From Thalassoglobus sp. (GTDB lineage Bacteria > Planctomycetota > Planctomycetia > Planctomycetales > Planctomycetaceae), in contig JBLWZY010000001.1 of NCBI GenBank assembly GCA_048266185.1, positions 652,002 to 716,001 of the forward strand: a DNA stretch of 64,000 nt. The letters run 5' to 3'. Positions within the stretch are counted from its first letter, which is position 1. Every line of letters starts with the position of its first letter. This document shows positions 28,644-33,673 of this stretch, piece by piece. Position numbers and translations under genes: made by a program. The notes under the pieces were generated by a model that had not been told where the DNA came from, did no database searches, and worked only from the letters and a program-made list of their open reading frames with translations.

Positions 28644-29513
28644 CTATTTTGCCAGCTTGTCGGCACTGACTGTGATCTCAATGGGAGTCGCTTCTCCGTT
28701 CGCGGGGACATCAACCGACAATGAGCGTTCAATATAACCAAGTTTTTCATGCCAGATAACAAATTCTAAGTTTGTCGCTGGTGCATTTGGAATTTCAAAT
28801 GTGCCATCCAGGTTTGTGACAGCGGCCCAAGGATGGTCGACAGGCATCACGTACGATGACATCCAGACATGGAAGTCACAGATCACTAATGCCGGTTTAG
28901 ATTCTGCAAATTCAAACTGATAATTCACATTCGCAGCGTTCAAAGGAGTGATCGTCGAATTGAAAGTATTCGCTTGCCCCTTAACGTTCACGTTGTGAGC
29001 AACTGGATCTGAGTTTTTCAACAAGACCGGTTGTCCAACCTGAACAACTTGTGCGTGTGGAATGAAAATACAGCCTTGCTGATCGAAGTCGATCTGCTCA
29101 GTTGGTGGTGCAGGGACATCGACATTCGGGACTCGTTTCAAGTAAATGAAAACGTTCCCAAGTCCACCGTTTTCGCCAACTGCCGATTGATTCGGTACTA
29201 CCATTTCGCTGCAGATCGCATCTTTAGTTGATTCGCCCTGTGCAAGTAACGGTGCAAAACTGGGCAGTGCTCCGTCTACTGAAATTTTTCCGCGCACTGT
29301 TCCGAACTCTGTGATTTTCGGACCAGCAGTTTGGGCCGCTTCTTCTTGTGAATCACCTAGTCCACCTTCAGTCAGCAGTGTCATGTGAACTGGACTGCGA
29401 GCTCCACCACCGACGCCTTCACGACGAACTGAAGGATCGCAACCAGTCATCGTCACGACTGACAATAAAAGGACAGCAAAAAATGTCTGTTGTGTTTGCA
29501 TGCGAATCATCAT
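28644..29513 (-). CDS. Paralogous cupredoxin-like lipoprotein
   Basis: MTG-C lipobox, DQQGC.F.PH, DPVAHNV, CDFHVWM, HPWAAV; DNA similarity to the neighbour is visible (about 28985-29040 vs 27960-28015). Confidence 0.78.
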   Translation of the reverse strand: MMIRMQTQQTFFAVLLLSVVTMTGCDPSVRREGVGGGARSPVHMTLLTEGGLGDSQEEAAQTAGPKITEFGTVRGKISVDGALPSFAPLLAQGESTKDAICSEMVVPNQSAVGENGGLGNVFIYLKRVPNVDVPAPPTEQIDFDQQGCIFIPHAQVVQVGQPVLLKNSDPVAHNVNVKGQANTFNSTITPLNAANVNYQFEFAESKPALVICDFHVWMSSYVMPVDHPWAAVTNLDGTFEIPNAPATNLEFVIWHEKLGYIERSLSVDVPANGEATPIEITVSADKLAK

Positions 29514-32500: not shown

Positions 32501-33673
32501 AGCTGTCGCGCCGTATTTTTCGTTTTCACCTAATTCGACAACATCGTGGTGACATTTCAAACAGGTCGACTCGATGAATTGATTCGGGTACATCGGAGCT
32601 TCCCAGAAGTGATTGGAGTGCCAATCATGTTTGGAAGCCCATTTCTCAGCGATCGCTGGATCGGATGGAGTATGCTCAGCGTTCTGGAAACTTGTTCCTG
32701 ATCCGTCACCAGCATGGCAAACTGTACACCCGAAACTGTTCACCGGGTGTGGGCTTGTTGAAGTCAGGAAGAGTTCTGGATTTGGGTGTGAGACAAATGG
32801 CTGCGGATAATCTTCAGCGACATAAGTCTGGTCAGTCGAGATGATTTCTCCATCTTTGCGAGTCACGCTAAAGTCGTCGATATTGACGTGGCATGTTCGG
32901 CATCGATCTACCCGTCCGACACTGACCATTCCCAATTGCTGTTCCAGTCCGGATGGCCAGTCGTATTGAATCTTCAAGTGAGGATTGAAGCCTTCGATGA
33001 TTGGCAATTCTTTCATCCAACGTTTGAATGATCGGAAAGCCGAATCTGGCTTAAGCAGTTGCTTTTGTTCCTGAAGCGCAACTTGTGATTGCTGTGCTTT
33101 AGTGAGCGCAGCTTCGGCTTCTGTGAGTTGACTACGCTTTGAGTCGAGTTCACTTTTTACAGCGTCGTGATTAGCGACTGCCTGCTGAAAAGCGAGTGAA
33201 CTTTCTTGCGCAGCTTGCTTGGCTTCTTCAAAGGCCATGAGAGCATTGTTGAGAGCAGTGGCTGATGCGTTATCGCGTACTGCGATATCGTAGTCTGCAC
33301 GAGCCTTGTCTCGGAACGCATTCTTTGATTTAGATGTCGTTTTGAGGATCTCGACCTGTCCCTCAAGTCGAGTTAGTTTCGACTCAAGTTCTTTCACATC
33401 GTCAGAACGGTCAGCCCACTGTTCCTTGTACTCAGAAATCTGCTGAGTCAGCAATTCGATGTTTTTTTGGTACTCAGCATCGTCGTATTTTTCGAGTTCT
33501 TCTTCAATACGCTGATAACGATAGACCTCTCCCTGCTTCTGGTATTTTTTCCAGGACCGGGATTCATCTTTGTACATCATCAACAAAGTCGTACCGAGTA
33601 GCAATACTGCACTCGCTGCAAATACTTTGTGCATTTGCGGAAGACTTCGCCAATATTGTTCACTTGCTGGCAT
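29510..33673 (-). CDS. Membrane-anchored octaheme c-type cytochrome (1387 aa) with coiled coil and PDZ-like insert
   Basis: Eight CxxCH motifs (CRTCH, CTVCH, CLKCH, CFGCH, CLACH, CYGCH, CTGCH, CRKCH); N-terminal TM; GDIVIAING...VKLLILRN PDZ-like segment. Confidence 0.88.
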   Translation of the reverse strand: MPASEQYWRSLPQMHKVFAASAVLLLGTTLLMMYKDESRSWKKYQKQGEVYRYQRIEEELEKYDDAEYQKNIELLTQQISEYKEQWADRSDDVKELESKLTRLEGQVEILKTTSKSKNAFRDKARADYDIAVRDNASATALNNALMAFEEAKQAAQESSLAFQQAVANHDAVKSELDSKRSQLTEAEAALTKAQQSQVALQEQKQLLKPDSAFRSFKRWMKELPIIEGFNPHLKIQYDWPSGLEQQLGMVSVGRVDRCRTCHVNIDDFSVTRKDGEIISTDQTYVAEDYPQPFVSHPNPELFLTSTSPHPVNSFGCTVCHAGDGSGTSFQNAEHTPSDPAIAEKWASKHDWHSNHFWEAPMYPNQFIESTCLKCHHDVVELGENEKYGATAPKVVKGWETIRDYGCFGCHEINGYDGTTPIGPDLRLEPNTPEELAVIEADPNMVAGDMRKVGPSLRHIDSKLTPEFVAYWTEEPKRFRPTTRMPQFFDLTNQHDEMAALLQPMELLGIAKYLEAKSQEFDIQSPKDDYKPDAKRGEDLFAKRGCLACHSKQDEAFAGVTADFGPDLSKIHEKIKPGKEGFDWLYTWIKEPSLYHTRTKMPDLYLDSYTEGETTIDPAADITAYLLEGGAKEFPALPKPENDLGLVFDHDFSKEKAKSLGLGEDGFRGLLIQEVIQGSAAQRAQVQIGENWEERPLVPGDIVIAINGTKLKSTEELKKIVHDAKVGEEVKLLILRNRQEITTRLFVSTPADDLVLLYLGKSLDKPGVEKTLEQRRFPVTSDMFEDGKTPANFIKGDEVELAPLSMDEEVSPEEWEKRKLVYIGRRTIARYGCYGCHDIPGFETARPIGTALQDWGHKDTSKLAFEHIHEFLHHHGEISDTADADDAHADDHHGPAALGTSTAARMEKIVKDSKAGDPNVSDQDLTEAMLYKSAISHGRAGFLWQKLRQPRSYDYKKTETKNWDERLRMPKFPFDPEQIEAVSTFVLGLVAQPPAPEFQFQPNKEQEAIFGGERLLAKFNCTGCHVLEMDSVEFEYDPKVLAIKGQDISEADMPAFDLLQHIKPLGSGGQGATGEVTEDGSVVYNARGFIQGIPDPEEEDPEFRFYSYRFWDGFQLDDGKFILPSEAVQIGESQIRKFVDGRGGEFGKWLVNRLAPELSKTPGGNDFNAAWQASVPPLTSEGYKVQTPWLYKFLKNPEPIRRSTVLRMPRFNMSDQEAQTLANYFAAKDGVPFPYQTIPQNQLDYQAQQANTYHEQFPDAEIDYLSASWNVLNGPLCRKCHNVGGNVVNDPKQIKGPNLQRVESRLRPEWTQLWVYKPMWVYPYTAMPENFPSDKPAEMKKMFGGQNPRQAQSVIDALFNYSDLIEVHGETTYNPESATPPEQPGGAE

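Follow-up and report, generated by a model that had tools for sequence, protein, structure and literature searches.

Few energy-converting enzymes have been studied as thoroughly as the complexes built around a Rieske protein and cytochrome b, in which the c-type subunit is as a rule small, with one or two hemes. The multiheme subunits of anammox Kuenenia also belong to Rieske/cytochrome b complexes. A separate precedent is given by the magnetochrome proteins MamP and MamE, which combine a PDZ domain with a c-type heme in one periplasmic protein. We analyzed a stretch of 64,000 nucleotides from Thalassoglobus sp. (Planctomycetaceae; contig JBLWZY010000001.1, positions 652,002 to 716,001; hereafter the window; G+C content of 50%), in which a gene at 29510-33673 encodes a genuine membrane-anchored octaheme cytochrome that carries a built-in PDZ domain. 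The octaheme protein probably belongs to a Rieske/cytochrome b quinol oxidase of b6f-like type, as its c-type subunit, and would there functionally replace cytochrome c1/f. The case for this assignment is made by the heme motifs and ligands kept across the family, profile matches to CcoO and NorC, the conserved gene order, a 4-nucleotide overlap with the next gene and the absence of cytochrome c1 from the genome.

An octaheme cytochrome at the cytochrome c1/f position

The gene (29510..33673) is an open reading frame for a protein of 1387 residues (P0001). It is coded on the minus strand, as are all the features of the window located below, and a plus-strand reading of the same interval was ruled out, the frame being full of stops. 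The closest homologue is a 1387-residue protein of Thalassoglobus polymorphus annotated as 'Cytochrome c', with 94% identity. A motif scan located CxxCH at residues 258, 316, 371, 406, 545, 832, 1020 and 1276. The protein has 16 cysteines, every one within these motifs. Both the reading frame and the count of exactly eight heme-binding motifs agree with an earlier note on this DNA, which had been made from the sequence alone.

The heme-binding motifs fall into six modules. The first is a triheme module (residues 250-400; 32474..32926) with CxxCH at 258, 316 and 371 and invariant histidines at 296, 309 and 334. It was assigned from motifs, conservation and a match to Pfam Cytochrome_C7 (PF14522) at residues 368-411, whose 34.8 bits, against a cut-off of 24.8, place it with the c7/c3-type multiheme cytochromes. 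The heme-4 module (residues 401-500; 32174..32473; CxxCH 406) is of class I by motifs and conservation, with the signature GPSL...W...RMP and Met484. The heme-5 module (residues 525-626; 31796..32101; CxxCH 545, Met600) belongs to class I by Pfam Cytochrom_C (PF00034; 51.5 bits against a cut-off of 21.3, residues 533-626), and a profile match to NorC was also found. The heme-6 module (residues 820-975; 30749..31216; CxxCH 832, Met968) was delimited by conservation and contains the motif EHIHEFLHHHG at residues 865-875. The heme-7 module (residues 1010-1215; 30029..30646; CxxCH 1020, Met1207) holds a beta-rich insert at residues ~1025-1139, seen as strands in the AlphaFold2 (AF2) model with a predicted local distance difference test (pLDDT) score above 90. 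The insert is of about 115 residues here and of 111-345 residues in homologues, having grown to 216-345 in other lineages. The heme-8 module (residues 1265-1365; 29579..29881; CxxCH 1276, Met1326) was recognized by motifs, GPNL...W...AMP among them, and by a profile match to CcoO.

The repeated GPxL...W...P...MP unit that the earlier note had described is exact at hemes 4, 5 and 8 (residues 453-485, 564-601 and 1295-1327). At hemes 6 and 7 it is degenerate, with the Met-Pro still there, so that Met-Pro follows each of hemes 4-8 (M484, M600, M968, M1207 and M1326). Across the broad family His 296, 309 and 334 and Met 484, 600, 968 and 1207 are invariant, and Met 1326 is conserved at 90% or above. 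Because of the invariant histidines and of the Met-Pro after hemes 4-8, we infer that hemes 1-3 are bis-His, with His 296, 309 and 334 as the sixth ligands, and that five His/Met class I hemes follow. The family profile matches CcoO (3mk7_B, E 1.9e-4) and NorC (3o0r_C, E 4.6e-4), and the His/Met modules therefore resemble these two monoheme proteins, which are subunits of cbb3 oxidase and of nitric oxide reductase, respectively.

The protein was modeled with AF2 in two halves, residues 1-640 (mean pLDDT 80.9) and 600-1387 (mean pLDDT 81.7). With the C-terminal half, Foldseek returned only PDZ domains among the matches listed, and no fold relative of the heme modules; with the N-terminal half it returned weak coiled-coil matches only, again with no fold relative of the heme modules. 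Sequence and profile searches of the PDB with the octaheme protein gave matches limited to PDZ domains, CcoO and NorC, and no solved structure of the family.

The protein is a typical member of a widespread family. A word-indexed search returned at least 1457 relatives. In an exhaustive search with residues 1-640, 640 clusters (50% identity level) passed a threshold of E <= 1e-30 and 1363 one of E <= 1e-10, with lengths of ~950-1977 residues. A match was present in 119 of 301 sampled genomes of the phylum, and at least 587 species-representative genomes encode a relative. All of the 120 full-length close homologues have eight CxxCH motifs at almost fixed spacing, and 106 of the 108 distant cluster representatives have eight. 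The family appears to be unstudied, as full-text literature searches and the Rieske/cytochrome b phylogeny papers examined gave no description of it.

The genomic position of the gene is as constant as its motifs. Loci were fetched for 77 species, and the order was judged on those with enough flank, which amounts to ~50 species, all of them in agreement: Rieske, b6, subunit IV, octaheme, one to three lipoproteins, diheme c, COX2 and COX1. The same order was found in two loci from metagenomes or metagenome-assembled genomes. All the loci with enough flank thus have the octaheme gene adjacent to those for the Rieske protein, cytochrome b and subunit IV. It directly follows subunit IV throughout, and no other c-type acceptor is coded between Rieske and octaheme. 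In the window the genes likewise run Rieske, b6, subunit IV-like and octaheme, which sustains the earlier placing of the gene at the cytochrome c1/f position. The first lipoprotein gene begins before the octaheme gene has ended, with an overlap of 4 nucleotides at the stop codon. A profile search with cytochrome c1 (Pfam PF02167) gave no match on the octaheme protein or anywhere in the genome; the Caulobacter positive control was detected by the same search.

The PDZ domain and the N-terminal helical region

The linker between the heme-5 and heme-6 modules contains a genuine HtrA-type PDZ domain (residues ~640-746; 31436..31756), identified concordantly by Pfam, phmmer, AF2, Foldseek, the family profile and conservation. 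Pfam PDZ_2 (PF13180) matches residues 661-743 with 35.6 bits against a cut-off of 27. The phmmer search matched the PDZ domains of DegQ and DegP, and the family profile matched the same domains at E 1.6e-9. The segment at residues 640-745 was modeled with pLDDT of 88-97. Foldseek gave 72 matches at E <= 0.001, the best 50 all being HtrA-family PDZ domains; examples are DegQ (3stj, E 4.5e-6), DegP (3mh6, root-mean-square deviation of 1.8 A over 110 columns) and the isolated PDZ domain of Streptococcus pneumoniae HtrA (9pno, Foldseek TMt 0.81). The segment therefore both scores above the Pfam cut-off and superposes on HtrA PDZ domains, and the PDZ-like stretch that had been noticed between hemes 5 and 6 is confirmed as a PDZ domain.

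The carboxylate-binding x-Phi-G-Phi loop of the domain reads D-L-G-L (residues 642-645). Across 87 PDZ copies G644 is 100% conserved and L643 75%, and G644, G668, R682 and D700 are conserved at 99-100%, the GD motif included. A beta-hairpin insert of 12-16 residues follows the GSxAxR helix (residues 684-693). The retention of the carboxylate-binding Leu-Gly loop makes it plausible that the domain binds C-terminal peptides.

The distribution of the PDZ domain shows it to be no constant part of the protein. Among 121 close homologues, 87 have a PDZ domain after heme 5 (site A), and the others have a linker of 21-40 residues there. In seven of the 121 a homologous PDZ domain sits within the heme-6 module (site B), and P0050, which belongs to these seven, has a copy at each site. 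Counted over the species loci, the domain follows heme 5 in ~21 and heme 6 in 11, the latter from Schlesneria and relatives; in ~40, about half of the loci, it is undetected. Among the distant representatives it follows heme 1 in at least 26 of 108. Because it is absent in many lineages and is found at three different sites, the PDZ domain is best described as an optional, mobile accessory with its groove kept, and as no part of the core wire. The copies at site B are homologous to those at site A (blastp down to E 6e-13), which argues that a PDZ domain is kept somewhere in the protein by selection.

Site B is occupied in this protein by a tract rich in His and Asp, EISDTADADDAHADDHHG (residues 876-897; 30983..31048), within the heme-6 module and directly after the conserved EHIHEFLHHHG; the same position bears the PDZ domain in Schlesneria-like relatives. 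The tract is specific to the Thalassoglobus clade and was modeled with pLDDT below 50. It lengthens in T. neptunius and related sequences. It may be a metal binder.

Toward the N-terminus, the predicted transmembrane anchor (residues 11-37; 33563..33643) is borne out by a hydrophobic stretch with its hydropathy peak at residues 16-34 and by an AF2 helix at residues 11-37. The anchor residues H15, F18, M32 and D36 are invariant or nearly so. The anchor is followed by a long helical region (residues 41-207; 33053..33553), in which DSSP assigned helices to the AF2 model at residues 41-64, 66-88, 90-133, 138-179 and 181-207, with pLDDT of 86-97. Pro and Gly together account for just 2 of its 167 residues. 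The clearest break between helices is at residues 134-137. The break adjoins the motif NAxRDxARAxYDIxVRD (residues 118-134), which is conserved in Planctomycetaceae and contributes A119, R125, A126, D129, R133 and D134 to the conserved residues nearby. Heptad periodicity of 3.5 residues is significant at residues 138-207 (p ~0.02) and not at residues 41-133 (p 0.2). Foldseek on the model of residues 1-640 gave weak matches only (E >= 0.018), all of them antiparallel coiled coils (F-BAR, SMC arm, SH3BP5 and Vipp1). In a comparison for compensating indels, those of close homologues fell in one helical arm only, as Gly/Pro-rich loops; distant homologues were too divergent to align.

Of the coiled coil of ~150 residues that had been proposed here, the long helical region stands (~165 residues in the AF2 model), and a canonical coiled coil is only partly borne out, by the heptads of the second arm. 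An extended stalk of 150 residues is less likely than a helical hairpin that folds back on itself. Because of the helix break, the antiparallel Foldseek matches and the heptads in the second arm only, we propose, with low confidence, that the region is probably an antiparallel hairpin ~12 nm long and not a 25-nm stalk.

Predicted electron path and alternative explanations

In the arrangement that we favor, the N-terminal helix would anchor the octaheme protein in the membrane with N-in/C-out topology, because heme attachment is periplasmic. The helical element of ~165 residues would fold back as an antiparallel hairpin, so that the heme domains would start near the membrane. The octaheme protein is predicted to associate with cytochrome b and to receive electrons from the Rieske protein. 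Electrons would pass from the Rieske cluster through the eight-heme chain to the co-encoded lipoproteins and diheme cytochrome c, and on to CuA of the adjacent aa3 oxidase. The PDZ domain would be an optional docking module that binds a partner, by the C-terminal tail or by a beta-strand, or a segment of the same assembly. Since many relatives do without it, its role would lie in the tuning of assembly or tethering and not in electron transport.

Several observations weigh against this arrangement. Bis-His hemes are usually of low potential, which would be awkward downstream of a Rieske cluster. The hairpin is weakly suggested, by the helix break and by Foldseek matches of E 0.018 or worse. 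Conservation within the protein is lowest in the PDZ columns, with mean values of 0.21-0.28 against 0.7-0.9 for the heme modules, and about half of the related loci lack the domain though their operon is the same. Lastly, we compared the last 10 residues of the Rieske protein, subunit IV, octaheme, lipoproteins, diheme c and COX2 among loci with the PDZ domain after heme 5 (n = 17), after heme 6 (n = 11) or with no PDZ domain (n = 26), and no C-terminus of an operon partner tracked the presence of the domain. The tails of subunit IV (IPEWFFNI) and of the Rieske protein (SFVEV-like) are strongly conserved in all three groups. A PDZ ligand among the operon-encoded C-termini was rejected, none of them co-varying with the PDZ state. 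Of the earlier suggestion that a peptide-binding domain recruits a partner, the binding loop is thus retained, and the expected tail was not found among the operon products.

Alternatively, the PDZ domain might be a structural filler or an intramolecular latch that has no external ligand, was trapped in a permissive linker and is kept only for folding or for the spacing of the heme modules. Besides its low conservation and the want of a co-varying partner tail, many lineages have a 21-residue linker in its place. This explanation is possible, if somewhat unlikely. Conservation reaches 99-100% in the LG loop and the GD motif, and homologous PDZ domains at three sites, with two copies in P0050, are hard to explain without selection for a PDZ function.

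A different alternative concerns the octaheme protein as a whole, which might be no integral subunit of the Rieske/cytochrome b complex and act as a separate membrane-tethered electron hub, functionally akin to cytochrome cy, that takes electrons from the complex and passes them to the aa3 oxidase and perhaps to other periplasmic reductases. The single transmembrane anchor, the many hemes and the flexible modular build with variable inserts would suit such a hub. The genome also encodes a second, compact Rieske/cytochrome b system on another contig (C16:77101-80000), in which a 188-residue Rieske protein is followed by a 720-residue fusion of cytochrome b and cytochrome c, with the c-type domains C-terminal and no octaheme gene nearby; electron routes in the organism are accordingly branched. 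We nevertheless regard the hub as quite unlikely. The octaheme gene always stands directly after subunit IV with no other c-type acceptor between it and Rieske, and cytochrome c1 is absent from the genome. Were the octaheme protein such a hub, the complex would have nothing to accept electrons from its Rieske cluster. That the PDZ domain, whose nearest relatives are the regulatory PDZ1 domains of DegP, DegQ, DegS and AlgW, is an HtrA/DegS-like sensor or regulator, through which exposed C-termini (those of damaged or not yet assembled envelope proteins, for instance) alter the conformation of the wire or a protease is recruited for quality control, is very improbable, given that neither the octaheme protein nor the conserved operon has a protease domain and that nothing in the sequence ties PDZ occupancy to heme geometry.

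The reading of the octaheme protein as the c-type subunit can be extended to a hard-wired quinol-to-oxygen assembly in Planctomycetia. The octaheme would stand in for cytochrome c1, the hairpin, with its conserved tip motif (residues 118-134), would brace the complex or set its position, and the PDZ domain, having moved between at least three insertion sites, would clamp a partner in a bc-aa3 supercomplex. Its candidate partners include subunit IV and Rieske, each with a near-invariant hydrophobic C-terminus (IPEWFFNI and SFVEV, respectively), as well as the copper-type lipoproteins. We consider this extension speculative and, taken as a whole, unlikely. If true, such an octaheme assembly would be a new architecture for quinol-to-oxygen electron transfer in Planctomycetia. 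Where one or two hemes are the norm, an entire bacterial family relies on a 150-kDa protein that has eight hemes and a probable helical hairpin, joined in many of its species by a PDZ domain. A structure of the complex would bear on how a Rieske cluster hands electrons to a multiheme chain, on a possible obligate supercomplex with aa3 oxidase via copper lipoproteins and on the role of a PDZ domain in a respiratory wire.

Neighboring genes and relation to known systems

The Rieske protein (433 residues; 36020..37321; Pfam Rieske) has a long N-terminal extension of ~250 residues ahead of its RRGF twin-arginine motif. Three near-identical repeats of STADILAAARAQ are found in this extension, in surroundings rich in Pro, Ala and Lys. 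The Rieske proteins of relatives vary in length from 150 to 477 residues. The cytochrome b6-type subunit (257 residues; 35170..35943; Pfam Cytochrome_B, 142.7 bits) has a CxGG motif (CMGG) of the heme-cn type. The extended subunit IV-like membrane protein (454 residues; 33741..35105), identified by profile searches and sequence, has ~9-10 hydrophobic segments in place of 3 and ends in an octapeptide, IPEW(F/V)(F/L)NI, that is near-invariant across ~50 species, whatever their PDZ state.

Downstream of the octaheme gene are two paralogous lipoproteins (27628..29513), recognized by sequence and kept in the same position in related loci. Both have AHNV and CDFH(VW/TF)M motifs, with a spacing that resembles a type 1 copper site; Pfam found only a weak CarboxypepD_reg-like domain, in the second. 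They are followed by a diheme cytochrome c (496 residues; 26169..27659; Pfam and sequence) and by the genes of an aa3-type oxidase, COX2 with its CuA motif, COX1, CtaA, CtaB and COX3 (20252..26121; Pfam and sequence). Further downstream of the oxidase genes, a domain search identified a SCO1/SenC domain fused to DUF420 (16317..17612), accompanied by an ABC-2 transporter pair. They probably serve the oxidase, either in copper delivery or as assembly factors. On the other side, the Rieske gene is immediately preceded by a gene for a protein with HEAT repeats that is like epoxyqueuosine reductase (QueG; 37329..38462; Pfam), which probably has no connection with the respiratory cluster.

Parts of the octaheme protein have counterparts in several described systems. 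With the HtrA-family PDZ1 domains of DegP, DegQ, DegS and AlgW its PDZ domain has in common the fold, the sequence family and the carboxylate-binding loop; it differs from them in having no protease domain, in its beta-hairpin insert of 12-16 residues and in being set within a cytochrome. The magnetochrome of MamP and MamE, in contrast, is a minimal heme motif of ~20 residues that functions in iron biomineralization, and is no respiratory class I or c7-type module. NCBIfam MamE gave just 19.9 bits on the octaheme protein, against a cut-off of 800. CcoO and NorC have the GPxL...W...P...MP signature in common with the five His/Met modules; in the octaheme protein the module occurs five times in one chain, and no heme-copper catalytic subunit is attached. 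The match to CcoO/FixO (PF02433) stayed below its cut-off (19.3 against 29.6 bits), and the context is that of an aa3, not a cbb3, oxidase; the likeness to CcoO is confined to the modules.

As to position and presumed role, cytochrome c1/f is the nearest counterpart. Both are encoded right behind Rieske, cytochrome b and subunit IV, both have one transmembrane anchor with the heme domain in the periplasm, and the octaheme protein, like cytochrome c1/f, is presumed to accept electrons from the Rieske cluster. The two have no sequence relationship, neither c1 nor f giving a match on the octaheme protein. The octaheme protein has eight hemes instead of one, an N-terminal instead of a C-terminal anchor and 5-6 times the size, and it adds the putative helical hairpin and the PDZ domain. 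Judged by sequence, the octaheme protein is thus analogous, not homologous, to cytochrome c1/f. QcrC, the actinobacterial diheme subunit, and ExtS of the Geobacter Ext cluster share with it the presence of more than one heme c on a Rieske/cytochrome b core, and the b6 subunit encoded here is close to NCBIfam ExtP (256 bits). The octaheme protein itself matched ExtS and QcrC weakly, far below the family cut-offs (29.8 against 100 bits and 24.4 against 200 bits, respectively), and we know of no coiled-coil hairpin or PDZ domain in the QcrC, anammox or ExtS subunits. Multiheme c subunits of Rieske/cytochrome b complexes are already known as a kind, and the octaheme protein is a variant of it.

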